Assembly: GCA_038214535.1 (NCBI GenBank)
Contig: JBBQRS010000003.1
Location: forward strand, 16,459-80,458
Origin: Anaerolineae bacterium
Lineage (GTDB): Bacteria > Chloroflexota > Anaerolineae > CG2-30-64-16
DNA length: 64,000 bases
Direction of reading: 5' to 3'
The position numbers and the translations under genes were made by a program. The notes beneath the pieces are model-generated. The model did no database searches. It saw only the letters and a list, made by a program, of their open reading frames with translations, and was not told where the DNA came from. Positions 3,246-51,528 of the stretch are shown in pieces. Each line of letters opens with the position of its first letter. The first letter of the stretch is position 1.

Positions 3246-4850
3246 ATGACGCTCGAATGTGATGTCCTGGTGATCGGGGGCGGCGCGACCGGCGGCGGGG
3301 CGGCGCTCGACCTGGCGCTGCGCGGGCTGCGCGTGATCCTGGTGGAGCGGGCCGACCTCACCGACGGCACGTCAGGGCGCTATCACGGGCTGCTCCATTC
3401 CGGCGGGCGCTATGCCGTGCGCGACCCGGAGTCGGCGCGCGAGTGCATTGACGAGAACCGCATCCTGCGGCGGATTGTACCTCAGGCCATCGAGGACACG
3501 GGCGGGTTCTTCGTGGTCACGCCCCATGACGATCCCACGTACGCGGATGGGTGGGTCGCCGCCTGTCGCGCGTGCGATATCGAGGTGGAAGAAATCAGCC
3601 CGGCGCAGACGCTCGCGTTGGAGCCGGCGCTCAACCCGCGTATTTCGCGCGTCTTCCGCGTGCCCGACGCTGCGTGCGATTCGTTCGACGTGCTCAATGC
3701 CCTGGCCGCAGCGATTCAGCGTGAAGGCGGGACCGTGTTGACCTATCACGGTGTGACGGCGCTGTATACCGAGCATGGCCGGGTGGTGGGCGCGATGGTG
3801 CGCCATGCACGCACGGGCGAGGAGCAGCGGATCGCGGCGCGCATGGTGGTGAACGCGGCGGGGGCGTGGGCGGGGCAAATCGCGGCGATGGCGGGCTGCA
3901 AGGTGATCGTGCGCCCCAGCAAGGGCACGATGGTGGCGATGGCTTATCGCTTCGTTAACACGATCATCAACCGCTGCCACCCGCCGGGCGACGGCGACAT
4001 CCTGGTGCCGGTGGGCACGGTCGCCGTGATCGGCACGACTTCTGTGCCGGTGAGCGACCCGAACGAGACGGGCGTCGAGGCGTGGGAAGTTCAGCGGATG
4101 CTGGACGAAGGCGAGAAGATCGTGCCGGGGTTCAGCCGGGTGCGCGCCCTGCGCGCCTGGGCGGGGGTGCGTCCGCTTTATGAGGAGAATGAGGCGGCAG
4201 AGGGCCGCGAGGCGAAACGCACATTTGCGGTGCTGGATCATGCAACCCGGGACGGCGTGGCGGGCCTGGCGACAGTGGTCGGCGGGAAGTTTACCACCTA
4301 CCGACTGATGGCCGAGCGCACGGCAGACCTCGTGTGTGCGCAGTTGGGCGCGACTTCGACATGTCAGACGGCTACTTACCTCCTGCCCGATCCGCGCCGA
4401 CCGAGTGAAGCGGCGCAACCGCACTGGCCCGGCCATCGGTTGGAGCAGATCGAGGCTTCGGAAACGCTCGACCCGTTGATTTGCGAGTGTGAGCTGGTCA
4501 CGCGCTCGCAACTGGTGGAGGCCGCCCGCGCGAACCCGCACATTGAGGCGAAGACGGCGCTGGACGACCTGCGGCGCGACCTGCGGCTGGGGATGGGGCC
4601 GTGCCAGGGTGGTTTCTGCAACTACCGGGCGGGTGGCGTGCTCCATGCGACGGGCAGCGTGGACGCAGCGCAGGCCGACCGCGCGATTGGCGACTTCGCG
4701 CAGCGCCGATGGAAAGGGCAGCGCCCGCTACTGTGGGGGCAGAGCTTGCGCCAGGCGTTGCTGGACGAGCATATTTATCGCACGATCCTGGGAATGGATG
4801 CGCTTTGTGCACCGGGCGACCCTGCCGACATGGAGCAGGCCGATGGATGA
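3246..4850 (+). CDS. glpA: anaerobic glycerol-3-phosphate dehydrogenase subunit A (FAD-dependent, C-terminal BFD-like [2Fe-2S] domain)
   Basis: N-terminal FAD dinucleotide fold DVLVIGGGATGGGAALDLALRGLRV; C-terminal CECELVT...GMGPCQGGFC BFD-like motif; directly follows glpK. Confidence 0.85.
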   Translation: MTLECDVLVIGGGATGGGAALDLALRGLRVILVERADLTDGTSGRYHGLLHSGGRYAVRDPESARECIDENRILRRIVPQAIEDTGGFFVVTPHDDPTYADGWVAACRACDIEVEEISPAQTLALEPALNPRISRVFRVPDAACDSFDVLNALAAAIQREGGTVLTYHGVTALYTEHGRVVGAMVRHARTGEEQRIAARMVVNAAGAWAGQIAAMAGCKVIVRPSKGTMVAMAYRFVNTIINRCHPPGDGDILVPVGTVAVIGTTSVPVSDPNETGVEAWEVQRMLDEGEKIVPGFSRVRALRAWAGVRPLYEENEAAEGREAKRTFAVLDHATRDGVAGLATVVGGKFTTYRLMAERTADLVCAQLGATSTCQTATYLLPDPRRPSEAAQPHWPGHRLEQIEASETLDPLICECELVTRSQLVEAARANPHIEAKTALDDLRRDLRLGMGPCQGGFCNYRAGGVLHATGSVDAAQADRAIGDFAQRRWKGQRPLLWGQSLRQALLDEHIYRTILGMDALCAPGDPADMEQADG

Positions 4851-6069
4851 CGTGCTGGTGATCGGCGCGGGGCCGGCCGGGTTGGTGGCCGCATGGACCG
4901 CGCACCGGCGCGGCGCGCGCGTCAAGGTGCTTGCATCGGGCATCGGGACGACACACGTTATGCCGGGTTGGTTGCAGGTTCTCAATACCGACGGATCGGT
5001 CGAGGCGGGCGTTGCGGAACTCGCGGCGCAGCAGCCCGATCACCCGTATGCGCTGGCGGGCGCGGGCGCGGTGCAGGCGGGGCTGGCGATGCTGCGCGAG
5101 GTCATAGAGCCGGCCGGTCTGCGCTACGTTGGGGACATAACGGGGAACTTGCTGTTGCCCACGGCGTTGGGGGCTGTGCATCGGGCAGCTTACGCGCCGG
5201 AGAGCTTCATCGCGGGCGACCTGCGCGAGCGAGGCGCGATGCTCATCGTGGGGCCGGACGCCTGGCGCGATTTCTATCCTCTGTTGTGCGCGGAGAATCT
5301 GGCGCGGCAGGGTTTTGCCGCACGCGGGATGACCTTTGCGCTGCCGGAATCGGAGGCGGGCAAGTTTGACACGACGCCGCCCGGTTTTGCGCGCCTGTTC
5401 GAGCGCCCCGAAATCCGCACGCGCGTGGCGTATCTGCTCAAGCCGCACCTGAGTGGTTTCAAGCGCGTGGGGTTCCCGGCCATCCTGGGGCTGGAGCACC
5501 ACCGCGAGGTCTGGGAAGATCTGCAAGACCGGTTGGGGCTGCCCGTGTTCGAAATTCCGACCCTGCCGCCGAGCGTGCCGGGCCTGCGGTTGTTCGCGGC
5601 GTTCAAGCGTGCGCTGGCCCCCGCGGGCGTGCAATTGCTGCTGGATATGACGGCGACGCATGGCTTGATCGAGGGACGGCATGTGACCGGCGTGGTCGTG
5701 CCCACCGTCACCGGCCGACAGGCCATCTATCAGGCCGAGCGCTACATCTTGGCGACCGGCGGGCTTTACGGCGGCGGCGTCGCCTCCGATCATCATGGCT
5801 TGTTGCGTGAGGTGGTGTTCGGCCTGCCGGTGGAGGCGCCGGGTGAGCTGGGCGACTGGTTCAGGTCGGAACTGCTGGGCGAGGCCGGGCATCCGATTCA
5901 CAGGGCGGGGGTGCGCGCCAACCATGTGATGCAACCGGTTGACGCCGATGGGCGCGTGCTATTGGAGAATGTCCGGGTGGCGGGCCGTCTGCTCGCTGGC
6001 AGCCAGCCAACATTAGAGGGGTCAACCGAAGGCGTGTGGCTTGCCACGGCCTATCGGGCGGCCTGCTGA
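4843..6069 (+). CDS. glpB: anaerobic glycerol-3-phosphate dehydrogenase subunit B
   Basis: MDDVLVIGAGPAGLVAAWTAHRRGARV Rossmann start; ATG 4843 overlaps the glpA stop (ATGGATGA); the upstream part of ORF 4489.. is an out-of-frame read-through artefact. Confidence 0.8.
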   Translation: MDDVLVIGAGPAGLVAAWTAHRRGARVKVLASGIGTTHVMPGWLQVLNTDGSVEAGVAELAAQQPDHPYALAGAGAVQAGLAMLREVIEPAGLRYVGDITGNLLLPTALGAVHRAAYAPESFIAGDLRERGAMLIVGPDAWRDFYPLLCAENLARQGFAARGMTFALPESEAGKFDTTPPGFARLFERPEIRTRVAYLLKPHLSGFKRVGFPAILGLEHHREVWEDLQDRLGLPVFEIPTLPPSVPGLRLFAAFKRALAPAGVQLLLDMTATHGLIEGRHVTGVVVPTVTGRQAIYQAERYILATGGLYGGGVASDHHGLLREVVFGLPVEAPGELGDWFRSELLGEAGHPIHRAGVRANHVMQPVDADGRVLLENVRVAGRLLAGSQPTLEGSTEGVWLATAYRAAC

Positions 6070-6080
6070 TCTGGAATATC

Positions 6081-7364
6081 ATGAGCGAAACATACACGCC
6101 GATCCTGTTGGAAGATATCCGGCGCACTGCCGATCTGTGCGTCAAGTGCAACATCTGCACCACCGCCTGCCCCGTGGCTGCGGTGACCGATCTGTTCCCC
6201 GGCCCGAAATTCGTCGGGCCGCAGGCGCAGCGTTTTCGCGACCCCGAGATGCCGTCGCCCGACGACTCACTGGACTACTGTTCGGGGTGCGGCGTCTGCA
6301 CGCAGGTGTGCCCGCATGACGTCAAGGTGATGGAAATTAACATTGCGGCGAAGGCGGAGTTGCGCGAACGGCAGTTGGAAGAGAACAAGCTCGATCCGCA
6401 CCTGTGGCGCAACTGGTTGCTGGGCCACAATGAGGCGCTGGGTGAACTGGGCGGATGGTTCGCGCCGATCTCTAACCTGGTGATGGGCATCCCGCTCACC
6501 CGGACGTTGATGGAGGTGACGCTGGGGATTGACCGGCACGCGCCGTTCCCGAAGTTCCATTTCACCAAGTTCCGTTCGTGGTTCTTCGGCGCGCACCAGA
6601 AAGAGAAGGCCCCGACGCCGCCGGGCGCGCCGAAAGTCGCCTATTTTTACGGCTGCGCGACCAACAACTACGAACCGGAAGTGGGCCGCGCCATCGTCGC
6701 GGTGCTGGAGCACAACGGGTTCGAGGTGGTGCTGCCGGAGCAGAACTGTTGCGGCCTGCCCATGCAGTCGAACGGCGACTTCGACGGGGCGCGCCGCTAT
6801 GCGAACGCCAACCTGCGCACACTGGCCCCCTACGCCGCGGAGGGGATTCCCATCGTCCTCGGCGGGACGAGTTGCGCCATGGAGTTGAAGGCCGATTATC
6901 AACACCTGCTGGGCATTCATACCGAGGAAGCGCGGCTGGTCGCAGAGAACACCTACGATATCAGCGAATTCCTGTGGATGCAGCACGAGGCCGGCCGCTT
7001 GCGCACCGACTTCGCGCGCACGGAAGCCTATCTGCCGTATCATACGTCGTGCCACCAGAAGCTCCATCGGATCGGGCGGCCCGCCCTCGAGCTGCTATCG
7101 CTCGTGCCGGGGTTGCGGGCCGAGGAAATGGGGTTCGACTGTTGCGGGATCACGGGGACCTACGGCTACAAACACGAGAAGTACGACATCGCCTACGCAG
7201 TTGGGGAACCGCTCTTCGAGCGTTTGAAGGCTTCGGGCGCGGAGATGGCGCTGTGTGACAACGAGACGTGCCGCTGGAACATCGCCAACCAGTCGGGCCT
7301 GCGGGTGGTGCATACGATGCAAATCCTCGCGCGGGCTTATGGGCTGAGCGAACATGGCCTGTAG
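6081..7364 (+). CDS. glpC: anaerobic glycerol-3-phosphate dehydrogenase subunit C (two 4Fe-4S ferredoxin motifs plus CCG domains)
   Basis: CVKCNICTTACP and CSGCGVCTQVCP ferredoxin motifs near the N-terminus, Cys-rich CCG-like C-terminal half; start at MSETYTPILLED. Confidence 0.8.
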   Translation: MSETYTPILLEDIRRTADLCVKCNICTTACPVAAVTDLFPGPKFVGPQAQRFRDPEMPSPDDSLDYCSGCGVCTQVCPHDVKVMEINIAAKAELRERQLEENKLDPHLWRNWLLGHNEALGELGGWFAPISNLVMGIPLTRTLMEVTLGIDRHAPFPKFHFTKFRSWFFGAHQKEKAPTPPGAPKVAYFYGCATNNYEPEVGRAIVAVLEHNGFEVVLPEQNCCGLPMQSNGDFDGARRYANANLRTLAPYAAEGIPIVLGGTSCAMELKADYQHLLGIHTEEARLVAENTYDISEFLWMQHEAGRLRTDFARTEAYLPYHTSCHQKLHRIGRPALELLSLVPGLRAEEMGFDCCGITGTYGYKHEKYDIAYAVGEPLFERLKASGAEMALCDNETCRWNIANQSGLRVVHTMQILARAYGLSEHGL

Positions 7365-14804: not shown

Positions 14805-15338
14805 TTAACGCCGTTTGCGCGGCGACTTGGGTGTGGAGCTGGCGGTGACGCGGAGTCCGCTCCAGCCGCAATCCTTGTTCCAGCAACGATAGCGGCGTAC
14901 CGGCGCGAACACGTTCACGACACGGTCTGTGGGGTGACGATGCACGCGATGAATCTCGCCGTCGCAACGCGGGCATGATATCTGGGTGAGGGATTTGGAG
15001 TGCGTGACCCGCCAGCGCAACCGGTAGGCGATGGCGACGACGGCGATGAGAAGCAGGACGAAACCAGTGATTTCGGCAGGCGACAGGTCATTGAAGAACG
15101 CGATCGCTTTGTCGGTCAGGGTGTGCGCCCGCGGCGCGACGATGTTGGTCGCCTTCGCAGCGGCCCGATCCATGGCGTAGCGGATCTGGCTGTATGCAGT
15201 GAGCAGCAGGAAGCCGGCCGCGGCAAGGGCCAGCCAGAAAAGCTCGGGCATTTCGCGCCATAGCCTGGCAAGCCTGCTCTCTTTGGGTTTGCTGCGATGT
15301 TTGTGTCGCGTGGGTTGCGTGACCGGATCCTGAACCAT
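14805..15338 (-). CDS. hypothetical small membrane-anchored protein with C-terminal Cys4 zinc-ribbon (CPRC...CWNKDC)
   Basis: 177-aa ORF with basic N-terminus, two hydrophobic helices and C-terminal CxxC-x22-CxxxxC; 13 nt after the nuoN-paralog stop and 8 nt before the murE start on the same strand. Confidence 0.4.
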   Translation of the reverse strand: MVQDPVTQPTRHKHRSKPKESRLARLWREMPELFWLALAAAGFLLLTAYSQIRYAMDRAAAKATNIVAPRAHTLTDKAIAFFNDLSPAEITGFVLLLIAVVAIAYRLRWRVTHSKSLTQISCPRCDGEIHRVHRHPTDRVVNVFAPVRRYRCWNKDCGWSGLRVTASSTPKSPRKRR

Positions 15339-15351
15339 AGGATGGACGACC

Positions 15352-16845
15352 TTACCTCAGGAATGAGAGCAGACTCTGCGCCGATTCGCCGGCCCAGTTG
15401 ATCACGGGACCGGGGATCAGTCCCAACAGCAGCGTGACCGCGCCGGCCAGCAGGATCGCGCCGGCCAGGGGCGCGGCGACCGCGATGGGCGTGCTGTCTT
15501 CGGGTAAGGGCATGAAGAACATGTAGCGGACTACGTTCAGATAGTAGAATGCCGCGACCACGCTGTTGATGGCGGCGATGATCACCAGCGCCCACATTTG
15601 TTGTTGGATGGCGGCGCCGAACACGAAGAACTTGCCCAGAAAGCCGCCGGTGGGCGGAATGCCCGCCAGAGAAATCAGGAAGAGGAAGAGCAGCACGGCC
15701 AGCCATGGCGCGCGGCGCACCAGCCCCGCGTACGATTCCAATTCGGCGCTCCCCGTGACCGTCTCGATGGCTGTCACGACGGCGAACGCGCCGACGTTCG
15801 TGAACAGATACGCGAACAGATAGAACAAGACGCCGTTATAGCCGGTGAAGGTTTGATCTGGGGCGGCCAGTACAGCGGCGACGCCGATCAGGATGTAGCC
15901 GGCCTGCGCGATAGACGAGTAAGCCAACATGCGCTTGATGTTGGTCTGGCGCAGGGCGGCCAGGTTGCCGATCGTCATGGTAAGGACGGCGACGGCGGTG
16001 AGGATGGCAACCCATTGCGGCTGCGCCCAACCCATCGCCATGGTGAAGACGCGCATCAGGATGGCGAAACCGGCAGCTTTGGATACTGTCGAAAGAAACG
16101 TCGTGATGGGCGTCGGCGCGCCTTCGTAGGTGTCGGGGACCCATTGGTGGAACGGCACGAGGCTGGCCTTGAACCCGAACCCGACCAGCAGCAGGATCAG
16201 CGCCGGGATTGTCAACCACACTAATTCCGATGGCCCTGCAAAGCTCAATGCAGCGGAGATGTCGCTCAGGCCCAGTGAGCCGGTCGCGCCGAAGAGCAAC
16301 GACATGCCGAACAGCATGATCGCCGATGCGGTGGAACCGTACAGGAAGTACTTGATCGCTGCCTCGCCCGACTTTTTGTCCTCACGCAGATAACCTGCCA
16401 GCACGTAACTGGTGATGCTGAGGAACTCCATGCTCAGGTAGACCATCATCAGGTTGGCCGAACCGACGGCGAGACAGATCGCCAGCGTCGCAATGAGCAA
16501 TAACGCGTAGAACTCGCCGGGGTAGGGCGTGCGCCCCCGCAGATAGGGGATGGCGATCAGGATGACCAGTGCAACCCCCATGATCGCCAGTGCTTTGAGG
16601 AAGATTGCAAATGAATCTACCACCAACATGCCGGTGACATAGTGCGCGCCGCTCGCCTCGCCGGCCAGCGCGTTGAGTGCCGGAATCAACCTGAGCGCGG
16701 CCACGCCCAGCCCGGCGAGCGCGATGTAGGGCAAAGACTCACGGCGGCGGCCTTCGCGATCTATCAGGTCGAGCGCGAAGATGAGCACGGCCGTCAGCAG
16801 CAGAGAGATTTCCGGTAGTATGAAGACAAGATCGCTCAAATTCAA
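15352..16845 (-). CDS. nuoN: NADH-quinone oxidoreductase subunit N, second (paralogous) set
   Basis: 497-aa antiporter-like subunit, MNLSDLVFILPEISLLLTAVLIF N-terminus, last gene of the minus-strand cluster. Confidence 0.85.
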   Translation of the reverse strand: MNLSDLVFILPEISLLLTAVLIFALDLIDREGRRRESLPYIALAGLGVAALRLIPALNALAGEASGAHYVTGMLVVDSFAIFLKALAIMGVALVILIAIPYLRGRTPYPGEFYALLLIATLAICLAVGSANLMMVYLSMEFLSITSYVLAGYLREDKKSGEAAIKYFLYGSTASAIMLFGMSLLFGATGSLGLSDISAALSFAGPSELVWLTIPALILLLVGFGFKASLVPFHQWVPDTYEGAPTPITTFLSTVSKAAGFAILMRVFTMAMGWAQPQWVAILTAVAVLTMTIGNLAALRQTNIKRMLAYSSIAQAGYILIGVAAVLAAPDQTFTGYNGVLFYLFAYLFTNVGAFAVVTAIETVTGSAELESYAGLVRRAPWLAVLLFLFLISLAGIPPTGGFLGKFFVFGAAIQQQMWALVIIAAINSVVAAFYYLNVVRYMFFMPLPEDSTPIAVAAPLAGAILLAGAVTLLLGLIPGPVINWAGESAQSLLSFLR

Positions 16846-16884
16846 GGCTGTGCCCTCCTCCGGCGCGACGCGCAGGGAAACCGG

Positions 16885-18465
16885 CTACTTTCCAACGAAA
16901 CCGCTCATCAGCGAGAGAAAAGTAGGATTGAAGAACGTCAGGAGGATGGCGGGCAGGACGCCCAGCAGCACCATGAAGAAAACCAGCGGCCAGAGTGTGA
17001 TTTTCTCGAAGGGAGCTACGTCCATCGGTGCGTGTTCTTCAACGCCGGTCACGGGATCGGTCCAATGCTCGATCTTGGTGGGGTCATACGGCCCCAGGAA
17101 CATGTACTGGATCATCTTCCAGAGGATGTAGGCGGCGGTCAGGATGATGCCGATGACGCCGACGATGGCCCAGAAGGTCACGATGTCGAAGGCGCCACGG
17201 AAGACGAAGAACTCGCCCCAGAAGCCGGCCAGCCCCGGCAGCCCCAGCGAGGCAAACGCCGTCACGGCAAAGAGGCCATAGTAATAGGGCGTCTTGCCGC
17301 TTAATCCGCCGAACATCTTTAAGTCGCGCAGGTGGGCGCGTTCATAGATAATGCCCACCAGGAAGAACAACGCGCCGGTGCTGATGCCGTGATTGAACAT
17401 GGTGAGCGCCGCGCCGTTCAGCGCCATCGTGCTGCTCTCGACCTGATCGGCCACGCCGACGGCGAGGGCGGCGGAACCGACGCCCAGCAACACGTAGCCC
17501 ATGTGACTGACGGAGGAGTACGCGATCAGTCGCTTGAGATCCCACTGCGCCATAGAGACCAGCGCGCCGTAGATGATCGAGATGACGCCCAGGATCACGA
17601 TGATCAAGCCGTAGCGTTTCATCGTTTCGGGGAAGATCGGCAGGGCGATGCGGATGATGCCATATGCGCCCAGCTTCAGCATGACGCCGGCCAGGATGAC
17701 CGAACCCGCCGTGGGCGCAGCGGTGTGGGCGTCGGGCAGCCAGGTGTGCAACGGCCAACTGGGTACCTTGATCGCGAAGGCGATGAAGAACGCCCAGAAC
17801 GCCAGGCTGGCGGCGAGGGTATTCCCGGCGAAGGGTTGCAGTCGCGCCGCCTCAACGATATCGAACGTCCCGCTGGACAGGTAGATGGCGATGATTGCCA
17901 GCAGCATGAATACGGAACCGGCCAACGTGTAAAGGAAGAACTTGATGGCCGAGTATTGCGGGCGGTCTTTGGGCTGGCCCCAGATACCGATCAGGAAGTA
18001 CATCGGCACCAGGCCGATTTCCCAGAAGACGTAGAAGAGCACCAGGTCGAGCGAGACGAAGACGCCCAACATGCCCATTTCGAGCAGGAAGAAGAGGAAA
18101 AAGAACTCGCGGACGCGGACTTTGATGGCGCGTGACGAATACCAGATGCCCAGCGCCGTCAGGAACGTGGTCAGGAAGACCAGCGGGACGCTGAGGCCGT
18201 CAACACCGAGATGATAGTTGATGTTGAGGACAGCGATCCACGGGGCGTTGACTTCGAACTGGAAGCCCGCGCCGGCCTTGTTGTAGGCGAACCAGAGCGC
18301 GATGGAGAGACCCAGAGGCAGCAGGCTATAGATGATAGACCCCTGCTTGATGAGCTTTTCCTCGCGTTCTTTACTCCATCCCAGCCACTTGCCCAGGGGC
18401 AACAACACGAGGATCGCGCCCACCAGTGGAGCAAATGTAATAAGGGTGAGTAGTGCGCTATTCAT
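16885..18465 (-). CDS. nuoM: NADH-quinone oxidoreductase subunit M, second set
   Basis: Mrp/NuoM antiporter-like fold with conserved ...WLPDAHTAAPTAGSVILAG...; start at MNSALLTLITFAPL. Confidence 0.85.
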   Translation of the reverse strand: MNSALLTLITFAPLVGAILVLLPLGKWLGWSKEREEKLIKQGSIIYSLLPLGLSIALWFAYNKAGAGFQFEVNAPWIAVLNINYHLGVDGLSVPLVFLTTFLTALGIWYSSRAIKVRVREFFFLFFLLEMGMLGVFVSLDLVLFYVFWEIGLVPMYFLIGIWGQPKDRPQYSAIKFFLYTLAGSVFMLLAIIAIYLSSGTFDIVEAARLQPFAGNTLAASLAFWAFFIAFAIKVPSWPLHTWLPDAHTAAPTAGSVILAGVMLKLGAYGIIRIALPIFPETMKRYGLIIVILGVISIIYGALVSMAQWDLKRLIAYSSVSHMGYVLLGVGSAALAVGVADQVESSTMALNGAALTMFNHGISTGALFFLVGIIYERAHLRDLKMFGGLSGKTPYYYGLFAVTAFASLGLPGLAGFWGEFFVFRGAFDIVTFWAIVGVIGIILTAAYILWKMIQYMFLGPYDPTKIEHWTDPVTGVEEHAPMDVAPFEKITLWPLVFFMVLLGVLPAILLTFFNPTFLSLMSGFVGK

Positions 18466-18517
18466 GAAGCATCTCCTCCGATGCAATTCGATCCGAAACG
18501 CCCAGGGCTGCCTGAGA

Positions 18518-20743
18518 TTATTTTGGCAGCAAGAAGAACGCGCCCAGCAAAACCGAAACGGTGACCAATGCGACCAACAGGTAATTCTGTACCCGGCCGG
18601 TTTGCAGGGTGCGAACGGCCGCGCCGACCCGGTCGGTGACGACGCCTACCCCGTTCACTGTGGCATCAATGATGTGCGTGTCGAACAGCGCGCTGACGTC
18701 TGAGAAGCGCTTCGACACCTTGCCGACGCCGTCCACAATCGGGTCGATGACCAGGACATCGTCGAAGTGATAGAGCCAGTTCGCTAGCCGCTTGATGGGA
18801 CGCACGAGAATCCGGTCATAGAACTCGTCGAAGTAGTATTTGTTCTGCAGTATGGTGTAGATGGGTCCCAGAGTACGTTGCATGGGGTCGGGCTGGCGCA
18901 TGGGGTCCGCCGCATAGGCGGTGTCTTCGCTGTAGTTGCGGTAGACCAGCCAGCCGACGAAGAGGCCGCCCAGTGCGACCACCAGCGACACCAGCAGCGG
19001 CACGATGTTGAACGGTAGCTCCTCGGCGGCAAACCCGTAGGCCTCGGCCATGCTGCCCATGATGTGGTGGAACGGATTCGACGAGAGGTTCCCCAGCACC
19101 GGGAAGGTCGTCGGGATGCCGATCCAGCCGAGCGTCACGGCGAAGAAGGCCAACACGGCCAGCGGGATGATCATCCACAGGAAGATGCTGTCGCTCTCGC
19201 TCGCATGGGCGGCAGCCTGCGTGCGCGGCTTGCCGAAGAAGGTCATGGTGATCTGGCGGGCGGTGTAGAAGGCCGTCAGCGCGGCGGCCAGCGCCAGGAC
19301 GAAGAAGACGAGCTGGTGACCGTGTGCCCAGGCGTCGGCGAAAATTTCGTCCTTGCTCCAGAAGCCCGCCGTGACGATGGGGAAGCCGGCCAATGCAAGG
19401 CCGCCCAGCACAAACGTGATTGCCGTCTTCGGCATCCGCCCGAACAGCCCGCCCATGTTGCGCATGTCTTGCGGGTCGAAAATTTGCGCGTCGGCGGCAT
19501 GTTCCTCGTCGTGGCCGTGCGCCGTCTCGTGTTGGCCGTGTTCCATGCCGTGGATCACGCTGCCCGAACTGAGGAACAACAGGGACTTGAAGAACGCATG
19601 CGTCAAGAGATGGAAGGTCGCCGCGACGTATGCACCGATGCCCAGCGCGGCGAACATGAAACCGAGTTGGGAGATCGTGGAGTAGGCCAGTACCTTCTTG
19701 ATGTCGTTCTGCGCCAGCGCGATAGTGGCGGCGAAGAGCGCCGTGAACGAGCCGATGAAGGCGATGAACGTCAGCGCCGGGCCGTGATCCACCGCCGTCA
19801 TCAGCGGGTAGGTGCGGATGATGAGGTAAACGCCGGCGGAAACCATCGTCGCGGCATGGATCAGCGCCGACACGGGGGTCGGGCCTTCCATCGCATCCGG
19901 CAGCCAGACGTGCAGCGGGAACTGGGCGCTCTTGCCGATCGCGCCGAAGAAGATCAGGATGGCGATGATGGTGGCCCAGGGCGTCGGGCCGATCAGCGGT
20001 ACGTTGGCGGTAGCCGTCACCAGGGCATTCAGCGTCTCCGGACGAAAGATCGCCGAAAAGTTCAGTGAGCCGACCTGAATATACAGGAAGAACATGCCCG
20101 TCAACATGATTGTGTCGCCGATACGCGTGGTCAGGAACGCTTTCAGTCCTGCCTGTTTCGGTGTGATCTTCCTGGGGTCGGCGTATTCGCGGGCGAACCA
20201 GAAGCCGATGAGCAGGTAGGAGCAGAGGCCCATGATCTCCCAGAAGATGAACAAGAGGATCATGTTGTCGGCCAGGATGAAGCCCAACATGCCACAGGCG
20301 AAGAGGGCGATGTAGGCGAAGAAGCGCGCGGCGAGCGGATCCACGTGGCCGGGTTCGGCGGGGACGCCGGGTTCGGCGTGCGCGGCGAGTGGTTTGCCCA
20401 TCCCCATATAGCCGACCGCATAGATGAAGATTAACAGGCAGACGAAGGGCACCATGAAGAGCATCACGGCTGTCAGGGGGTCAATGGCGAACCCCAGGCT
20501 GTGCCACGTGCTACCGGTGGGCAACCAGTCGCGGAAAATGCGGAACGGGTCTTCCGCCAGCCCTTCGGTGCGGAAGGCCGTGAAGGCCATCAGCCAGCTT
20601 ACGATCCAGGCCGCGCCGATCGCGCCGATAGCGAGGCCCGCGCTGAGCTTCTTGCTGCGATGCGCCCACAGAACAATGATAACAAAAGCCACGAACGGTA
20701 AAACGGGCGGCAACCACAGCAGATTGAATATGGATTCAGACAT
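18518..20743 (-). CDS. nuoL: NADH-quinone oxidoreductase subunit L, second set, unusually long (741 aa) with His/acidic-rich loop insertion
   Basis: Conserved WLPDAMEGPTPVSALIHAATMV core; insertion HGMEHGQHETAHGHDEEHAADAQIFDPQD (approx. nt 19453-19546) absent from the plus-strand NuoL. Confidence 0.85.
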   Translation of the reverse strand: MSESIFNLLWLPPVLPFVAFVIIVLWAHRSKKLSAGLAIGAIGAAWIVSWLMAFTAFRTEGLAEDPFRIFRDWLPTGSTWHSLGFAIDPLTAVMLFMVPFVCLLIFIYAVGYMGMGKPLAAHAEPGVPAEPGHVDPLAARFFAYIALFACGMLGFILADNMILLFIFWEIMGLCSYLLIGFWFAREYADPRKITPKQAGLKAFLTTRIGDTIMLTGMFFLYIQVGSLNFSAIFRPETLNALVTATANVPLIGPTPWATIIAILIFFGAIGKSAQFPLHVWLPDAMEGPTPVSALIHAATMVSAGVYLIIRTYPLMTAVDHGPALTFIAFIGSFTALFAATIALAQNDIKKVLAYSTISQLGFMFAALGIGAYVAATFHLLTHAFFKSLLFLSSGSVIHGMEHGQHETAHGHDEEHAADAQIFDPQDMRNMGGLFGRMPKTAITFVLGGLALAGFPIVTAGFWSKDEIFADAWAHGHQLVFFVLALAAALTAFYTARQITMTFFGKPRTQAAAHASESDSIFLWMIIPLAVLAFFAVTLGWIGIPTTFPVLGNLSSNPFHHIMGSMAEAYGFAAEELPFNIVPLLVSLVVALGGLFVGWLVYRNYSEDTAYAADPMRQPDPMQRTLGPIYTILQNKYYFDEFYDRILVRPIKRLANWLYHFDDVLVIDPIVDGVGKVSKRFSDVSALFDTHIIDATVNGVGVVTDRVGAAVRTLQTGRVQNYLLVALVTVSVLLGAFFLLPK

Positions 20744-20799
20744 AAATACGTCCCCTCGGTCTTGAAGGCGAGAGAAACCGGCGACCTGTAAACTTATTT

Positions 20800-20854
20800 G
20801 TAGTCTAGCCCCTCGTGAGCGTCGCCGACGGGCACAAGGCCCCTATGCTACGGA
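20800..20854. repeat. conserved ~55-nt non-palindromic intergenic motif, copy A (between nuoK and nuoL of the minus-strand cluster)
   Basis: gtagtctagcccctcgtgagcgtcgccgacgggcacaaggcccctatgctacgga is ~80% identical to 56804-56857. Confidence 0.45.
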
Positions 20855-20860
20855 CCTGAC

Positions 20861-21169
20861 TCAACCGCTCATCAGGTCGAGTTCGGGCACATTAATGGTG
20901 TGGCGCTGCCGGTAGACGGCCAGAATCAGCGCCAGCCCGACCGCGGCTTCGGCGGCGGCCACGGTGATGACGATGATGGCGAACGCCTGGCCGTCCATCT
21001 TCGCGGCGCTGATATAGCGCCAGAAGGCTAGCAGGTTCAGGTTCACGGCGTTCAGCATCAGCTCGATGCCCATCAGGATGCCGACGGCGTTACGACGGAT
21101 CAGCGCCCCGACGAGGCCGATGCAGAAGAGGCCGGTTGCAACAACGAGATACCACGTCAGCGGAACCAT
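20861..21169 (-). CDS. nuoK: NADH-quinone oxidoreductase subunit K, second set
   Basis: 102 aa; GIELMLNAVNLNLLAF motif. Confidence 0.85.
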   Translation of the reverse strand: MVPLTWYLVVATGLFCIGLVGALIRRNAVGILMGIELMLNAVNLNLLAFWRYISAAKMDGQAFAIIVITVAAAEAAVGLALILAVYRQRHTINVPELDLMSG

Positions 21170-21694
21170 TTATTCTCGCTCCCGTGCGACGATGATTGCC
21201 CCAATCAGCGCGGCGACCAGCAGGATGGACGCCACCTCAAACGGAATGACGTATGGGCCGACAAACCCCGCCCCCAACTGCTGGATGGCGTCGGGCGGGA
21301 CGGCCTGCACGTTGACGGGCCAGGGGATTTGCGTGACGATGGCCGCCAGCGCGACAAAAAGCAGCGCGCCGAAGCCCACCACCAGCCGCCACTGGTTGTT
21401 GAACCGCGCCTCATCTGAGGCCATGACGTTGCGGCTCAACATGATGGCGAAGATAATCAGCGTGGCAATCGCGCCGATGTAAACCAGCACCTGCACGACG
21501 GCCAGGAATTCCGCCTCAAGCAGGATGTAGAGCGCGGCAATGCCGGCGAAGGAGAGGATGAGCCACAGCGCGCTGCGGAACAGGCTGCGTGATGTCACCA
21601 CCATGAGCGCCGCCCCCAGCGTCAGGAGGCTCAGCATAATGAAGATCACCTGCTGCATGAAGGCTTCCCCCCGATCAAGAACCAATGAACACAC
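21170..21694 (-). CDS. nuoJ: NADH-quinone oxidoreductase subunit J, second set
   Basis: 174-aa 5-TM ORF with NuoJ-like LLEAEFLAVVQVLVYIGAI; alternative start at MQQVIFIM. Confidence 0.8.
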   Translation of the reverse strand: MCSLVLDRGEAFMQQVIFIMLSLLTLGAALMVVTSRSLFRSALWLILSFAGIAALYILLEAEFLAVVQVLVYIGAIATLIIFAIMLSRNVMASDEARFNNQWRLVVGFGALLFVALAAIVTQIPWPVNVQAVPPDAIQQLGAGFVGPYVIPFEVASILLVAALIGAIIVARERE

Positions 21695-21700
21695 ATAAGA

Positions 21701-22882
21701 TCAGGTATTTCCCTGCGATTCGAGCGGGACCCAGCCCTGTTGGCGCGCATGGCGTTTGGCGGCCCGCCCCAGGGCCCCCAGGGTCACCAGCAACACACCG
21801 AGACTGCCGGCCAGGATGAGCGCCCACTGCACAGGGGCAGGCACGGGCAGCTTCATGGCTATGGCAATCCAGAGTAAGTTGACCAGCGAGACGGGCACCA
21901 ACACCTTCCAGGCCAGATCGAGCATCTGGTCAATGCGGAAGCGGGGCCACGTGCCGCGAATCCACATCAGCACGAAGATGACGGCCACGATCTTGGCGAT
22001 GAAGTAGAAGGGGCCGAGCGCCGGGACAGCGGAACCGCCGGGCCCGCGCCAGCCGCCGAGGAAGAGCGTCGTTGTGATGGCCGCAATGGCGAAGAGGTTG
22101 CCATATTCGGCGATGTAGAACCAGCCGAACTTCAGACCGCTGTATTCTACGAAATAACCGGCGACGATCTCCGATTCGGCCTCGAGCAAGTCGAACGGGG
22201 TGCGCCCCGTCTCGGCGATCCCGCTGAGCAGGTAGACCAGGAAGGTGGCCGGCATGATGACGATGAACGGCAGGACTTGCGCCTCGACCACGTCGCCCAT
22301 CCGCATCGAGCCAACGAGCAGCGTGACGGCGGCGATGGAGAGGATCATCGGCACTTCGTAACTCAGGAGTTGCGCTACCGCGCGGAACGCCCCCAGCAGC
22401 GCGTATTTGTTGTTCGATGACCAGCCTGCCATCAGCACGGAGACGGTGGTGATGGAGCCGATCGCGACGACGTAAAGCACACCGATGTTGAGGTCGGCGG
22501 CGGCCATGCCCCGGCCAAACGGGATCACCGCCCACAGGAGCGCCGCGCCGGCGGCGATGAGGATGGGCGCGAGGTTGAAGACCGGCTTGTCGGCCCCGTC
22601 GGGGACGACATCCTCTTTGACGAGCATCTTCACGGCATCGGCAAACCCCTGAAAGACGCCGAAGGGGCCGAGGCGGTTGGGACCGAGGCGGTTCTGGATG
22701 CGGGCGATGGTCTTGCGCTCCATCCAGGTGAAGCTGAGCGTCGCCAGCACGGGCATCATCACCAGGATCACAGCCATGATGAGGAAGTTGAGCGTGTTGA
22801 CGGCCCAACCCGGCAGGAAGCCGTCAATCCAGCCTGTCCACGAACGGGCGATATTTACGAAGAAGTCTCGAAAGTAGTCCAT
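21701..22882 (-). CDS. nuoH: NADH-quinone oxidoreductase subunit H, second set
   Basis: RKTIARIQNRLGPNRLGPFGVFQGFADAVKMLVKED signature of NuoH/ND1. Confidence 0.85.
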   Translation of the reverse strand: MDYFRDFFVNIARSWTGWIDGFLPGWAVNTLNFLIMAVILVMMPVLATLSFTWMERKTIARIQNRLGPNRLGPFGVFQGFADAVKMLVKEDVVPDGADKPVFNLAPILIAAGAALLWAVIPFGRGMAAADLNIGVLYVVAIGSITTVSVLMAGWSSNNKYALLGAFRAVAQLLSYEVPMILSIAAVTLLVGSMRMGDVVEAQVLPFIVIMPATFLVYLLSGIAETGRTPFDLLEAESEIVAGYFVEYSGLKFGWFYIAEYGNLFAIAAITTTLFLGGWRGPGGSAVPALGPFYFIAKIVAVIFVLMWIRGTWPRFRIDQMLDLAWKVLVPVSLVNLLWIAIAMKLPVPAPVQWALILAGSLGVLLVTLGALGRAAKRHARQQGWVPLESQGNT

Positions 22883-23027
22883 ACTTGCGTTCCACTCTTG
22901 ATTGCGCGGCGACGAGATTCTTCGCTGAAGTCTCTCGGCAACGAACGTTTGTCGGGCGGCCCGCTCACGTTACCGTGACAAGTGCGCGACTACCGCCGCA
23001 AATTCTCAATGTGCATGAGCCGGATGC

Positions 23028-23390
23028 TTACCACTCCAGGGCGTCTTTGCGCCAGGCGTAGAGGAGCCCGCCCAGCAATATCAGGACGAAGACCATCATC
23101 TCGATGAGCGCATATAATCCCAGCTTGTTGTATGCGACTGCCCACGGGAAAATGAAGACGGCTTCCACGTCGAACACGACGAAGATCAGCGCAAAGATGT
23201 AATATTGGGCTTTGAACTGCACCCACGTATCGCCGATGGTTTCCATCCCGCATTCGTAGGTGGCATTTTTGACCGCATTGGGTTTTTTGGGCCGCAAGAA
23301 CCGGGCAAGGATTAACCCGATGATGGGCAGCGCAAGCGCAACGAGTATGAAGATGCCCAAAAACGCATACTGTGAAGGCACAGCCAACCC
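23028..23390 (-). CDS. nuoA: NADH-quinone oxidoreductase subunit A, second set
   Basis: NuoA-like ...ATYECGMETIGDTWVQF...FIFPWAV; GTG start at 23390 preceded by GGGAGG RBS; the upstream in-frame extension of the 169-aa ORF is rejected. Confidence 0.7.
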   Translation of the reverse strand, partial: GLAVPSQYAFLGIFILVALALPIIGLILARFLRPKKPNAVKNATYECGMETIGDTWVQFKAQYYIFALIFVVFDVEAVFIFPWAVAYNKLGLYALIEMMVFVLILLGGLLYAWRKDALEW

Positions 23391-23762
23391 TCCCTTGGGT
23401 CGCGTCGTCCCGGGAAGAAGTAAAGAGACTGCACGCGGGGTTGTCAACGTTGATTCGGTTGCGGGCCACACGCGCCTGTAACCGTTCAGACTGCGTGCGT
23501 AGTGTAACACAACCAAAAAGCCAGTGCAAAGATTCACGTCTTAACTGGAAGCCAGATACCAGATTCTAGCGGTCATCCGGCCGACAATATGTATATTGTA
23601 AATTAAGTCACATAATTACCGATCAATTTGCGTTCGGATGACCAAAACGGTTTGACAATGGGCAAGCGTTCGTGATAGACTTTGCAAGCCCTGCCGGGTA
23701 TTGCCCCTGAGCGCGGGGCGAATCCTCATATCATCGGTTAGTGTCAATACACGCAGCGTTGC
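23391..23762. promoter_or_regulatory. AT-rich divergent promoter region between the two nuo gene sets
   Basis: Plus-strand TTGACA (23652-57)-17 nt-TGnTAGACT candidate for the complete operon; minus-strand TTGACA (rc of 23443-48)-18 nt-TTTACT weaker candidate; local AT enrichment (gtatattgtaaattaagtcacataattacc). Confidence 0.4.
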
Positions 23763-26444: not shown

Positions 26445-28370
<1,926 letters not shown>

Positions 28371-40400: not shown

Positions 40401-41738
40401 ATGGATCAGCAACAATCCTCCGAATCCGCAAATTCAGCCCTCGCGGCGCTCATCGAATCGGCCCAACGCCTGGGCGTCGAACTGGATGAAGCCGATGCCT
40501 TGCAATGGCTGACGGCCATTAGCGCATGGAAACCGGGCGACGCGCTGTCGGTTAATGATGAACTCGGCGTTTTTGGTCATCAGGTTGTCATGCTCGACTT
40601 CAACCCCGCGGAACTGGCCTATTTTCGGGAACTGGCGCGCGTGGTGGCGATTGACGATCAACCCGGCGTTATCGAGACGGCGATTGCACTGTCCGGTTCG
40701 GCGGCCCAGTCGAAAATCCAGACCTACCCCGGCGACTGCGACTTCTTCCAACGGGTGAACATTATCGCGCCGACGCGTCAGGAGGCGTGTCGCATTCTGG
40801 CGCAGGCGATGCGCGACAAGGCGTTGCAGGCAATGCGGGGTCGCACCTACCAACTCATCGAGGTGAAGTTCGGCTCGTATCCGCAAGACCTGGTGGTGGG
40901 CGATAAACTGATGAAGGCCGGTTCGCCGATTGCGTGGGGCGTCGGTGAGCTACGCGCCGGCCAGATCAACGCCTTCCTGCCCGATGATTCGCCCTATGCG
41001 TTGCAGTGGGATGATGTGGCCGATGACCCCGGTTGGTGCAAGCTGGATTGGGTCGTTGCCGATCCGCAGCGCAGCCGGTTGGCGAACGCCAGCAATATGC
41101 TGGATGTTACGTGGGAAGCGCCGGACGGCAGCATCACGCCGCTGGATGGCTACCTTGACCCCTACTTCCAGGAGGTCTATCTCGAAGCGGACTCGATTCC
41201 CATCTTCAGCAAGCTCTCCCGGCACGTTTCGGCTGATGCCCTCGACGATTACGTCGCGGCGCTCCAACGTGAAGTCCGCAAATATGTGACGAAAGACGTG
41301 AACTACGGCAAGGCGGCCAAGCGGATGTACAACGTCTTCCGGTTGACGGGGCGCTATCCCGAAGCGGCGTTCATCCGCGAGCTGTTCGACGAACCGGCGA
41401 CCATGCTTTACCAGGTTTGGTCTTTGATCCGCACCGTGGATGATTGGTACGAGACAGGTTCGAGCATTTCGCTGGAGATTGTTCTCCAGCAGACCGATCA
41501 ACTGATCCTATCGGTGATCAAGGCGCTGGAGGGCGAAGCGGAAGAGGAGATCGTTGAGGATCTGCTCCATTTCCGCGATATTCTGGTGCGTCACGGCAGC
41601 GACGAGTCGCTGACCGCGGAGGCCGAAGGCGCGCGCCAGCGGATCATCAACCTGGTGAACAACTTCTTTTATGAGCGATTGACCGCGTTGCCGCAGATTA
41701 AGCAGTACATGGAAGATATTTCAGCGGATCACGCTTGA
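40401..41738 (+). CDS. hypothetical protein with candidate Pol-beta-superfamily nucleotidyltransferase core (hG[GS]...DxD) plus large helical C-terminal domain
   Basis: AIALSGSAAQSKIQTYPGDCDFFQRVNI matches hG[GS]-x(9-13)-[DE]h[DE]h; candidate third acidic residue in QLIEVKF; 446 aa; its stop overlaps the ATG of the next gene (TGATG at 41736-41740). Confidence 0.4.
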   Translation: MDQQQSSESANSALAALIESAQRLGVELDEADALQWLTAISAWKPGDALSVNDELGVFGHQVVMLDFNPAELAYFRELARVVAIDDQPGVIETAIALSGSAAQSKIQTYPGDCDFFQRVNIIAPTRQEACRILAQAMRDKALQAMRGRTYQLIEVKFGSYPQDLVVGDKLMKAGSPIAWGVGELRAGQINAFLPDDSPYALQWDDVADDPGWCKLDWVVADPQRSRLANASNMLDVTWEAPDGSITPLDGYLDPYFQEVYLEADSIPIFSKLSRHVSADALDDYVAALQREVRKYVTKDVNYGKAAKRMYNVFRLTGRYPEAAFIRELFDEPATMLYQVWSLIRTVDDWYETGSSISLEIVLQQTDQLILSVIKALEGEAEEEIVEDLLHFRDILVRHGSDESLTAEAEGARQRIINLVNNFFYERLTALPQIKQYMEDISADHA

Positions 41739-44700: not shown

Positions 44701-45298
44701 GGATAGCCAGGTTATCGTGGTTAGCGCGTATTACGATGGCCTGGGCATCGGCCCGGATGGGACGTTCTATCCTGGCGCGAATGACAACGCCAGCGGCATC
44801 GCCACGCTGTTGGAACTGGCGCGCTTGATGAAAGAGAGCCCATATCAACCCAAACGGACAATCGTGTTTGTGGCCTGGGCAGGCGGCGAGCGCAACGAAG
44901 CGCTGAGTGTGACGAGCATCATGAGCGCGAAGGTCGGGTTCAGCGGGTTGAACGTGGAGACCGTGATGGAACTGAGCGGCGTCGGCGCGGGCGACGGCAA
45001 GGCGGTGGCCTTCGGTGAAGGGAGCAGCTATCGTCTGGTGCAGCTTTACCAGAAAGCAGCGGCGCGCCTGGGGGTCGAGACGACGACGCGGGGGCGAGGC
45101 CCACACTACGCGATGCCTGACACGATGGCCTTCGGCGGCCGCGATGCGCTCTCGCTCCACGTCAGTTGGGACGGCTCCGACCGGACCGCGCACACGCCCG
45201 ATGACGCGATAGCGGCGATTGACATCGAGAAGCTGCGACAGATCGGCCAGTCGGCCATGCTCACATTAAGCGTGCTCAGCCGCGAGCCCACATATTAG
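41738..45298 (+). CDS. fusion protein: OppB/DppB-like ABC permease domain + OppC/DppC-like ABC permease domain + extra TM helix + M28-family zinc-peptidase-like domain with PA-like insert
   Basis: EAA-region AHAKGLSARMVRDRHAIPN and C-terminal LLDPRLR (OppB-like); PWGTDHIGRDVQALVLYGARQT and second EAA region (OppC-like); hydrophobic YALPGAVAATLLLVWLL after the permease; C-terminal SAYYDGLGIGPDGTFYPGANDNASGIATLLELAR...WAGGER...HTPDDAIAAIDIEKL (M28-like). Confidence 0.7.
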   Translation: MTAADGLLVGEAVSEVKHRRAGGEGVRRVVRRLLDTLLILAAIVYLTQFLLILAALGRERQPASFVQVAGQALTQSLDYVFRHPQTYLWHKVETGSFNLVLTTFSHSIGLLLLSLAIATVSGWALGLLMALRQRRAGSMFIFTLTVLGTSTPSFLLAMLLWIINIRVHNRFDVPALPPTGFGWDAHLIMPALVLAARPLAQIAQVTYVQVSQALGQDFIRTAHAKGLSARMVRDRHAIPNIIAPVLTTVGTSLRYSLSSLPVVEYFFLWPGVGLLILQAIDADMPTLVTDSIVCLGLFFLVVNLLLDLALPLLDPRLRDTSSNRVGVEGMGLNGLKEGLVGIFNRQRTRGETLPPLPRSTVSRALLEAGEPAATARATWAFKGLASNLPLLIGGALVVGMILVGIFAPRLTAANPYQSHGVMTIDGVIGAPPYPPSDTFPWGTDHIGRDVQALVLYGARQTLLLAFFGMLARLVLGSMLGAVAGWQQGGRFDRLVMGATNVWAAFPTTIFALLLIQGLGIQQGMWVFVVALCVVGWGEVAQTVRQQVIHIKPQLFIEAARSIGARASRTLAQHVMPGLLPMLIVLGVLEMGGILMLLAELGFLNTFLGGGFRVEIGEVGQMQPIVAYFSDIPEWGAMLANVRQWWRSYPWMAWYPGAAFFLAILSFNLFGEGLRRFFERSRINLGRLFGRYALPGAVAATLLLVWLLRSATPLADYQGYAESFDAQHVLHDVETLASAEYGGRETGTPGAEQTVRFIAERMAEIGLFPAGDSTPTKDQNPFIQTQIVERPRLTGVPQLTIEGDPGEALIYREDFVERPVSMQERAQGVVVGVALGPEPSGRLTDPYGLGRQDLLDKVLIVPEENLARLKTSVPSAILVITQDSLMLERRFLFPGAFGRGKTPPQMYISPETSDRLLQTTGTSLAEFENAAAQLGPGEAVVTGDGVSVTLEIPLSAPDGGETPTVEYYNIIGFIPGSGAEMQTETGASMDSQVIVVSAYYDGLGIGPDGTFYPGANDNASGIATLLELARLMKESPYQPKRTIVFVAWAGGERNEALSVTSIMSAKVGFSGLNVETVMELSGVGAGDGKAVAFGEGSSYRLVQLYQKAAARLGVETTTRGRGPHYAMPDTMAFGGRDALSLHVSWDGSDRTAHTPDDAIAAIDIEKLRQIGQSAMLTLSVLSREPTY

Positions 45299-47141: not shown

Positions 47142-47300
47142 ATTGCCTCCTGGCCTCGCGACATTATTCTACAGCAGAATAGCATAAACTGACTGACTGG
47201 AAAAGAGACGCCGGGCTGAGCGGGCAGGTTCCCCCGCCCATACAGCCCGGCGTCAGGAGCCGGTTTGTTCTAAGCAAACCGGCTCCGCGTCTTCAGGACT

Positions 47301-49127: not shown

Positions 49128-49280
49128 CGTTTCTCCTTCTCCTTTATGTGAAATAGTTGGCTGACGGTTGATATGACAACTGCCTGATGGTCGCAATCGC
49201 ACTTACCGACAGGCAGTCGGCAGAGGTTTGGCTTGCATCCACCAGGCAGTCATCTTTGGGCCTTATGGAGGGGGTATGGC

Positions 49281-50300: not shown

Positions 50301-50315
50301 AGTGGCCTCCTGAGG

Positions 50316-51374: not shown

Positions 51375-51528
51375 TCTGAAAATCCTGTTTGAATCGGTTC
51401 AGACTCGGCGTGGCAAATGCCTGGCCAATCTGAAGGTTTTAGAATCTCGGACGGCTTTATTATTGTGAAGCCGTCCGAAATTGGAGTAACCTGGGGAGAA
51501 GGCTCTCCCCAGGTTCACAGTCGCTAGA

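Follow-up and report, generated by a model that had tools for sequence, protein, structure and literature searches.

A seven-gene membrane-arm nuo cluster in an Anaerolineae bacterium and its probable place in a split-operon complex I without NuoEFG

Introduction

The DNA considered here, a stretch of 64,000 nucleotides from an Anaerolineae bacterium (contig JBBQRS010000003.1; the whole stretch is called the window below, and its G+C content is ~61%), carries two sets of nuo genes for complex I that stand head-to-head. One is a complete nuoA-N operon on the plus strand (operon 1). The other, which is the subject of this report, lies on the minus strand at 15352-23381 and reads nuoA2-H2-J2-K2-L2-M2-N2, a gene content that supplies a membrane arm and none of the genes of the Q-module (nuoB, C, D and I) or the N-module (nuoE, F and G). 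We propose, with a probability of roughly 0.65, that this second set is the membrane half of an 11-subunit, NuoEFG-less complex I whose operon has been split and whose Q-module genes lie elsewhere in the genome. The proposal is built on the make-up of the cluster itself, on its relatives across the Chloroflexota, and on a family of orphan Q-module clusters from the same taxa.

The Seven-Gene Cluster

Gene calls were taken from a listing of open reading frames (ORFs) combined with NCBIfam scans, and the other large ORFs of the window were scanned with Pfam. In order of transcription, the seven genes are:

23028..23381, minus strand: nuoA2, 117 residues; NCBIfam NF005839, 153.8 bits against a cut-off of 163, E 2e-45
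21701..22882, minus strand: nuoH2, 393 residues; NF004741, 338.9 bits, above cut-off
21170..21694, minus strand: nuoJ2, 174 residues by the longest ORF; NF005163, 116.9 bits against a cut-off of 174, E 7.5e-34
20861..21169, minus strand: nuoK2, 102 residues; NF004322, 133.6 bits, above cut-off
18518..20743, minus strand: nuoL2, 741 residues; NF005141, 595.7 bits, above cut-off
16885..18486, minus strand: nuoM2, 533 residues by the longest ORF; TIGR01972, 531 bits, above cut-off
15352..16845, minus strand: nuoN2, 497 residues; TIGR01770, 411 bits, above cut-off

The longest ORF for nuoA2 runs from 23028 to 23537, and the start is most likely the GTG at 23381, since the NF005839 match covers only residues 56-169 of the long ORF, the GTG sits 6 nt after the Shine-Dalgarno sequence GGGAGGG, and NuoA homologues in related clusters measure 117-119 residues. 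An earlier note on this DNA had placed the cluster at the same span with an end at 23390; the span holds, and the end falls about 9 nt past the likely start codon. The same note had described the second set as A, H, J, K, L, M and N only, intact and close-packed, with a 145-nt gap between A and H and no nuoI between H and J. All of this is borne out by the NCBIfam scans and the ORF listing, and the gaps measure 145 nt (A2-H2), 6 (H2-J2), 0 (J2-K2), 117 (K2-L2), 31 (L2-M2) and 39 (M2-N2).

The encoded proteins retain the residues expected of working membrane-arm subunits. NuoH2, whose best solved match is Mycobacterium smegmatis NuoH (8e9g_H, E 8e-71), aligns with solved NuoH through conserved loops between transmembrane helices 1 and 2 and between helices 5 and 6, and its quinone-cavity loop motifs are kept (ERK...GPN...AD..K, GWSSNNKY, ETGRTPFDLLEAESE and RGTWPRFRIDQ). 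NuoA2 has the YECG and FDVE motifs, NuoJ2 has AEFLA and VYIGA, and NuoK2 keeps both membrane glutamates (GIELMLN, AAAEAAVGL). Among the antiporter-like subunits, NuoL2 shows the canonical Glu/Lys/His/Lys-Asp motifs, NuoM2, the product of the only nuoM in the cluster, shows FWE, K..H.WLPDAH...K and GFWGEF, and NuoN2 shows SMEF, FK..PFH.W.PD...K and GFLGK; the Glu of transmembrane helix 5, the Lys-His-Lys of helices 7 and 8, and the Lys/Glu of helix 12 are present in all three.

That the second set has no B, C, D, I, E, F or G holds throughout the 64 kb. Searches of the whole window by tblastn with B, C, D and I queries, both of the set-2 type and of the orphan type described below, matched only the Q-module genes of operon 1, and tblastn with L2, M2 and N2 found exactly six antiporter-like genes. 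Pfam scans of the other large window ORFs revealed neither a hydrogenase or formate dehydrogenase nor any Nuo gene standing alone; these ORFs belong to glycerol metabolism, peptide transport by the ATP-binding cassette (ABC) type of transporter, murE and other housekeeping functions. No RNA genes came up when the window was scanned with Rfam and for tRNAs.

Relatives of the Cluster in Chloroflexota

Relatives were collected as the best 80 genomic loci matching NuoH2, with one genome per species and each ORF classified against both window sets. Every one of these loci is from the Chloroflexota, and ~60 of the 80 show the same arrangement as the window, A-H-J-K-L-M(-M)-N without B, C, D or I, in which A directly precedes H and J directly follows it; conservation of the seven-gene cluster, which the earlier note had put forward for comparative study, is thereby established. 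Such loci span Anaerolineae, Anaerolineales, Caldilineaceae, Ardenticatenia, Thermoflexales and related groups, with two nuoM genes in ~20 of them and murE after nuoN2 in many. Other loci among the 80 have the eleven-gene order A-B-C-D-H-I-J-K-L-M-N and occur in some Anaerolineae (L012, L013, L016 and L019-L021) as well as in Dehalococcoidia/SAR202. Neither the 11-gene nor the seven-gene clusters themselves contain E, F or G in any instance. Similarity to the window set is much the same for both kinds, as illustrated by the 11-gene locus L020 (A 66%, H 52%, M 59% and N 53% identity) and the seven-gene locus L022 (A 66%, H 52%, M 61% and N 50%). A divergent 14-gene operon stands next to the cluster in 17 loci, which comprise the window's own clade and the Caldilineaceae, the latter at ~50% protein identity.

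In a neighbour-joining tree of NuoH, the H2 proteins of seven-gene clusters group with those of the 11-gene lineage, with the Anaerolineae 11-gene group as their neighbour and H1 far off, a position that identifies the seven-gene cluster as the membrane portion of the NuoEFG-less lineage. NuoH2 and NuoH1 of the window share 45% identity. The substantial difference between the NuoL and NuoM paralogues that had been seen earlier is upheld, and since the paralogous sets are only 42-50% identical, set 2 is to be regarded as an ancient second lineage and not as a recent duplicate. Moreover, the ratio of nonsynonymous to synonymous substitution rates (dN/dS) is 0.13-0.26 for all seven set-2 genes, a sign of purifying selection and like that of operon-1 genes and murE, in a rough Nei-Gojobori comparison with three orthologous loci (L004, L002 and L010) where dS is near saturation and the values are indicative only. 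Neither the relatives' loci nor these ratios give any sign of the frameshifts or relaxed selection that a degenerating duplicate, the possibility raised in the earlier note, would be expected to show.

The 11-gene lineage also includes a rearranged cluster (L083, 8528-21152) with the order A-B-C-D-I-H-J and a malic enzyme gene between nuoJ and nuoK, from which gene order in this lineage appears unusually fluid.

Orphan Q-Module Clusters

The hunt for a matching Q-module used the NuoD of the 11-gene locus L020 as its first query and then a fused C/D match (P0098). The unfused NuoD matches sampled from the first search (P0044, P0080, P0037 and P0033) led only to complete 11-gene clusters and to no orphans. 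The locus of P0098 carries nuoB, nuoCD and nuoI, with membrane subunits absent within 10 kb, and a search with this protein opened onto a large family of fused NuoCD (~570-600 residues) and NuoBCD (~770-840 residues) proteins, labelled Anaerolineales, Anaerolineae, Thermoflexus or Chloroflexi and including the isolate Thermoflexus hugenholtzii JAD2. All fused-CD loci examined (L087, L088, L092, L097-L116 and L177-L179) are orphan clusters, and membrane subunits are absent from up to 10 kb around them; twenty metagenome contigs carry such clusters, several with 10 kb of flank on either side, and the unfused relatives recovered in the scan that gave these contigs are located in 11-gene clusters. 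Examples include iscX-nuoB-nuoCD-nuoI-apbC in a Thermoflexus sp., and, among metagenome-assembled genomes (MAGs) at NCBI, nuoCD-nuoI in two and nuoBCD-nuoI in one.

By sequence, these proteins belong to the same lineage as the seven-gene cluster. The fused family is 55-64% identical to NuoD of the 11-gene type and only ~40% identical to the window's CD1, and a neighbour-joining tree of NuoD gathers the orphan fused proteins into a single clade that nests within the 11-gene lineage, with the Anaerolineae 11-gene group as its neighbour and the 14-gene CD1 clade well apart; this position mirrors that of the seven-gene NuoH. They score as NuoD, NuoC and NuoI, and they keep the cysteines of the N2 cluster (NuoB), two 4Fe-4S motifs (NuoI) and the quinone-site His/Tyr motifs (NuoD). 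For T. hugenholtzii JAD2, which encodes the fused C/D protein SNB52409.1, the supplement to PMC8129789 lists a 14-gene operon with unfused nuoC and nuoD. The fused protein of this isolate is consequently an additional Q-module gene.

Genes for the biogenesis of iron-sulfur (Fe-S) clusters recur around the orphan clusters. In L088 (9070-13494), L097-L109 and L179, iscX lies upstream of nuoB and an Fe-S carrier ATPase of the ApbC/Mrp type lies downstream of nuoI; in mitochondria, the ApbC/Mrp homologue Ind1/NUBPL is used for Fe-S cluster insertion into complex I. A rex-like gene (Put_DNA-bind_N and CoA_binding domains) lies a few genes upstream of the orphan cluster in Thermoflexus.

The Neighbouring Operon, Promoters and Flanking Genes

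Around the seven-gene cluster, the following features were identified:

23763/23787-38470, plus strand: nuoA1-B1-CD1(fused)-EF1(fused)-G1-H1-I1-J1-K1-L1-M1-N1, by NCBIfam and tblastn
23652..23681, plus strand: promoter-like site of the 14-subunit operon, TTGACA-18-TAGACT with TG, found by promoter scan and conserved in six intergenic regions
23501..23529, minus strand: putative sigma-70-type promoter of the seven-gene cluster, with -35 TTGCAC (23529-23524), a 17-nt spacer and -10 TACACT (23506-23501)
14805..15338, minus strand: small membrane protein with a C-terminal C4 zinc ribbon, 177 residues, 13 nt downstream of nuoN2

The plus-strand operon is complete and divergent from the seven-gene cluster, as had been reported. 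Its NuoE-NuoF fusion (641 residues, 26445-28370, plus strand) is common to relatives and measures 644 residues in L004. The putative promoter on the nuoA2 side would give the seven-gene cluster a 5' untranslated region of ~113 nt; it falls below the threshold of a simple promoter scan, and its function is suggested by conservation, TTTGC and TG.TA.A.T being invariant in an alignment of six intergenic regions (the window, L002, L003, L004, L006 and L010). Both promoter-like sites are conserved, and the two gene sets therefore appear to have separate, back-to-back promoters. Between them lies a perfect, AT-rich palindrome (ACAATATGTATATTGT; ACAATAT-GT-ATATTGT, ~23585-23600), which was considered as a regulatory site and rejected, as it is not conserved among the five aligned relatives and is unlike a Rex box.

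On the other side, the small membrane protein has two predicted membrane helices and a CPxCxG...RC...C motif and matched no Pfam or NCBIfam family; its gene is possibly co-transcribed with nuoN2, is followed by murE, and is kept in this place, with nuoN2 on one side and murE on the other, by none but the closest relatives (L002, L004, L007, L008, L010 and L011). With its own promoter and operon 1 upstream, and a small conserved gene and murE downstream, the seven-gene cluster cannot continue past its ends. Missing Q- or N-module genes in a continuation of the same operon, which the earlier note had named as a circumstance that would overturn its reading, are thus found at neither end, and there is no room for them.

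Farther off, ~8 kb from the nuo clusters, the window encodes a GlpA-like dehydrogenase with flavin adenine dinucleotide (3246-4850, plus strand) and GlpC (6036-7364, plus strand), which indicate an anaerobic-type glycerol-3-phosphate dehydrogenase, another quinone-reducing enzyme. The latter product, a CCG/4Fe-4S protein, was compared with the GlcF/LdhH-like gene near orphan Q clusters as possible kin; it is GlpC, at 27% identity, and unrelated. An ORF of 1187 residues (41735-45298, plus strand) joins two BPD_transp_1 ABC-permease domains to a C-terminal M28 peptidase domain and adjoins a locus for peptide ABC transport that encodes three paralogous solute-binding proteins of family 5 (45381-53508).

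A Split-Operon Complex I and Its Rivals

The account that we favour runs as follows. An ancestral 11-gene operon would have split in this Chloroflexota lineage into a membrane-arm operon, A-H-J-K-L-M(-M)-N, and a separate Q-module operon of nuoB, fused nuoCD and nuoI, which would lie elsewhere in the genome, often beside iscX and apbC/mrp. The loops with which NuoH, in known complex I, builds the quinone cavity together with NuoD and NuoB are retained in NuoH2, which therefore needs a Q-module. We infer from the sequences that an orphan cluster of this kind is present in the window's own genome and that the two halves assemble into one enzyme. Electrons would enter this enzyme from a source other than NADH, as suggested by the lack of E, F and G in any related cluster and by analogy with cyanobacterial NDH-1, and the donor would probably be reduced ferredoxin, as in the latter. 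Electrons would pass through the Fe-S clusters of NuoI and NuoB to quinone at the NuoD/B/H interface, and protons would be pumped through H/A/J/K and through N, M and L. Expressed from an independent promoter, such a second enzyme would work alongside the NADH-dependent 14-subunit enzyme encoded next door.

The two suggestions of the earlier note fare differently in this light. Its notion of a partner encoded elsewhere is strengthened by orphan nuoB-nuoCD-nuoI clusters of the matching lineage in the same taxa, while the hydrogenase- or formate dehydrogenase-like partner that it had envisaged loses ground to what is most likely an ordinary Q-module. That the second arm has no dedicated peripheral arm is more than 64 kb can show; orphan Q-modules of the matching lineage are abundant in the same taxa.

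Several points weigh against the split-operon account. No genome was found that pairs a seven-gene with an orphan cluster; the nearest approach is a shared genus, Thermoflexus, in which L062 carries a seven/eight-gene cluster and L088, L095 and L179 carry orphan clusters, and a search for Thermoflexus NuoH homologues with three look-ups of cluster members turned up no assembly shared with an orphan cluster. Likewise, the orphan-cluster assemblies PSMB01, JAKEGY01, CADDYW01 and JAEVEX01 (reached from P0236, P0167, P0206 and P0200) have no counterpart among the 80 NuoH2 loci. With 64 kb in view, the window's genome may lack an orphan cluster. The NuoH and NuoD trees are neighbour-joining trees without support values, the identity of the electron donor is argued by analogy, and the head-to-head arrangement kept in 17 loci might point to some functional tie with operon 1.

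This last point leads to the best-surviving rival, module swapping, in which the second membrane arm would be mounted on the peripheral arm of operon 1 (B1, CD1, I1, EF1 and G1) as an NADH-dependent alternative form whose pumping or quinone properties differ. The window's 64 kb without a second Q-module and the maintenance of divergent adjacency to the 14-gene operon, both in the window's clade and at ~50% protein identity in Caldilineaceae, speak for it, and this adjacency in two lineages is the one positive sign of such swapping. Against this, ~44 of 61 seven-gene clusters have no 14-gene operon beside them, the promoters of the two operons are separate, and orphan clusters in the same taxa hold a dedicated Q-module family that belongs to the matching lineage. 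The divergence already noted between H2 and H1, and between CD1 and the set-2 type of CD, also tells against an exchange of parts, as does a phylogenomic survey in which subunit recombination between complex I clades was rare (PMC4453560). We consider module swapping unlikely, though it deserves more weight than any of the other rivals.

A second possibility is that the membrane arm receives electrons from a different kind of input module encoded elsewhere, made of hydrogenase-like, formate dehydrogenase-like or F420-type subunits. Related membrane modules do serve group-4 hydrogenases and Fpo, we know of no dedicated donor module for 11-subunit enzymes, and the orphan clusters sometimes lie near GlcF/LdhH-like Fe-S proteins. 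Yet every relative of H2 with a Q-module in cis has ordinary NuoB, C, D and I, the orphan NuoD lacks the C-terminal cysteines of the NiFe type and keeps the quinone-site residues, and none of the ~60 seven-gene loci showed a hydrogenase or formate dehydrogenase gene nearby, so that a foreign module strikes us as quite improbable.

It is slightly harder still to see the cluster as a stand-alone cation/proton antiporter of the Mrp type, consisting of the membrane arm alone. NuoL, NuoM and NuoN are homologous to MrpA and MrpD, and the seven-gene, membrane-only operon of Salinispora, for which such a role was loosely put forward, has been read as an ion pump tied to marine adaptation (PMC3314556). 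Conversely, NuoH2, NuoA2 and NuoJ2 keep quinone-cavity and E-channel residues and loops that have no role in an antiporter, genes for MrpE, MrpF and MrpG are absent, and the cluster descends from full 11-gene operons. Finally, decay to a functionless partial duplicate, for which one might cite the missing subunits with nothing beyond, is effectively refuted by the conservation and selection data, namely seven intact ORFs with all canonical residues, dN/dS equal to that of set 1 and murE, the same cluster in ~60 loci across several classes, and a conserved promoter.

The NuoL2 Extension

NuoL2 differs from NuoL1 by an insertion of 26-28 residues in the lateral helix, at residues ~658-687 as mapped against NuoL1; in the alignment with cyanobacterial NdhF (6hum_F), residues 660-687 are unmatched between NdhF residues 603 and 605, a 28-residue gap. 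The insertion resembles a tandem copy of the adjoining (next) helix unit. Its effect can be expressed as the distance from the Y-x-D-E-x-Y motif to L-Q-x-G, which amounts to 77 residues for L2, compared with 51 for L1 and 51-53 for canonical NuoL:

NuoL of 14-gene operons (window L1 and relatives): 51-52 residues
NuoL of Dehalococcoidia/SAR202 11-gene clusters: 52-53 residues
Nearly all Anaerolineae-type set-2 NuoL measured: 77-79 residues

What defines "2M" complexes, as PMC6606698 summarises them from Chadwick et al. (2018), is a longer NuoL combined with a second NuoM. A long NuoL with a single nuoM is found in the window, in ~20 related seven-gene clusters and in the 11-gene loci L081, L084 and L086. 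Possible explanations are a NuoM encoded elsewhere, the use of the same NuoM twice, or another role for the extension. In "2M" enzymes the extension reaches across a fifth pumping subunit, and it is conceivable, if rather doubtful, that the extra pump position is here filled by a subunit from outside the cluster, either a second copy of NuoM2 or the NuoM1 of operon 1, the latter resulting in shared parts and hybrid complexes, or that the whole second arm exchanges with the first on one peripheral arm.

Significance

Should the split-operon account be correct, scoring "complex I completeness" operon by operon would misjudge Anaerolineae-type Chloroflexota, which are abundant in sediments, sludge and hot springs; annotation pipelines would count a partial, orphan-looking membrane arm and overlook that two complete enzymes are present, one of them dependent on NADH and the other probably on ferredoxin. 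It would also bear on how these organisms balance their redox carriers under changing oxygen. The division into a membrane-arm operon and a Q-module operon beside Fe-S assembly genes also parallels the modular way in which complex I is assembled. The pattern of a long NuoL with one NuoM poses a small question about how the number of pumps is set, and is the only part that specialists might care to follow. No description of this Chloroflexota split, a membrane operon with an orphan fused-CD Q-module operon, was found in the searchable literature.

Comparison with Known Systems

The closest known system is the 11-subunit complex I of Chloroflexota itself, exemplified by Caur_1976-1987 of Chloroflexus aurantiacus and by the Dehalococcoidia clusters, with which the window cluster shares NuoH, A, J, K, L, M and N of the same lineage and the lack of E, F and G. 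In Chloroflexus, too, a complex I of the NuoEFG-less lineage coexists with a canonical 14-gene operon (PMC3150298). The window cluster departs from that system in having no B, C, D or I, and the taxa with seven-gene clusters in having a separate Q-module cluster with C and D fused. The "2M" complex I is likewise similar, NuoL2 being ~26 residues longer in the lateral helix and many sister seven-gene clusters having two nuoM, and likewise distinct, as the window cluster and ~20 related clusters combine the long NuoL with one nuoM.

Identical gene content is met in the partial nuoAHJKLMN operon that Salinispora, marine Streptomyces and other Actinobacteria carry beside a complete nuoA-N (PMC3314556, PMC8622039). 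These organisms belong to another phylum and are likened here by gene content as given in descriptions, and the Salinispora operon has been read as a horizontally acquired marine adaptation (PMC3314556), whereas the Chloroflexota cluster, with its conserved murE synteny, looks vertically inherited. The Mrp Na+/H+ antiporter shares homologous antiporter-like subunits, which appear as secondary NCBIfam matches far below cut-offs when Mrp models are run on the set-2 proteins; Mrp is without NuoH and NuoA, while the window cluster has both, has the quinone-cavity motifs, and has no MrpE, MrpF or MrpG.

The NDH-1 of cyanobacteria and chloroplasts has 11 core subunits without NuoEFG, depends on ferredoxin, and has its ndh genes spread over several loci. 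Among solved structures, NuoL2 is matched best by its NdhF (6hum_F, E 9e-114); no subunits specific to oxygenic photosynthesis are seen here, and the best solved match of NuoH2 is mycobacterial. Taken together, known systems already account for which genes are present, for their lineage and for their coexistence with a canonical operon, and the split is a difference of gene organisation and not a new kind of machine.

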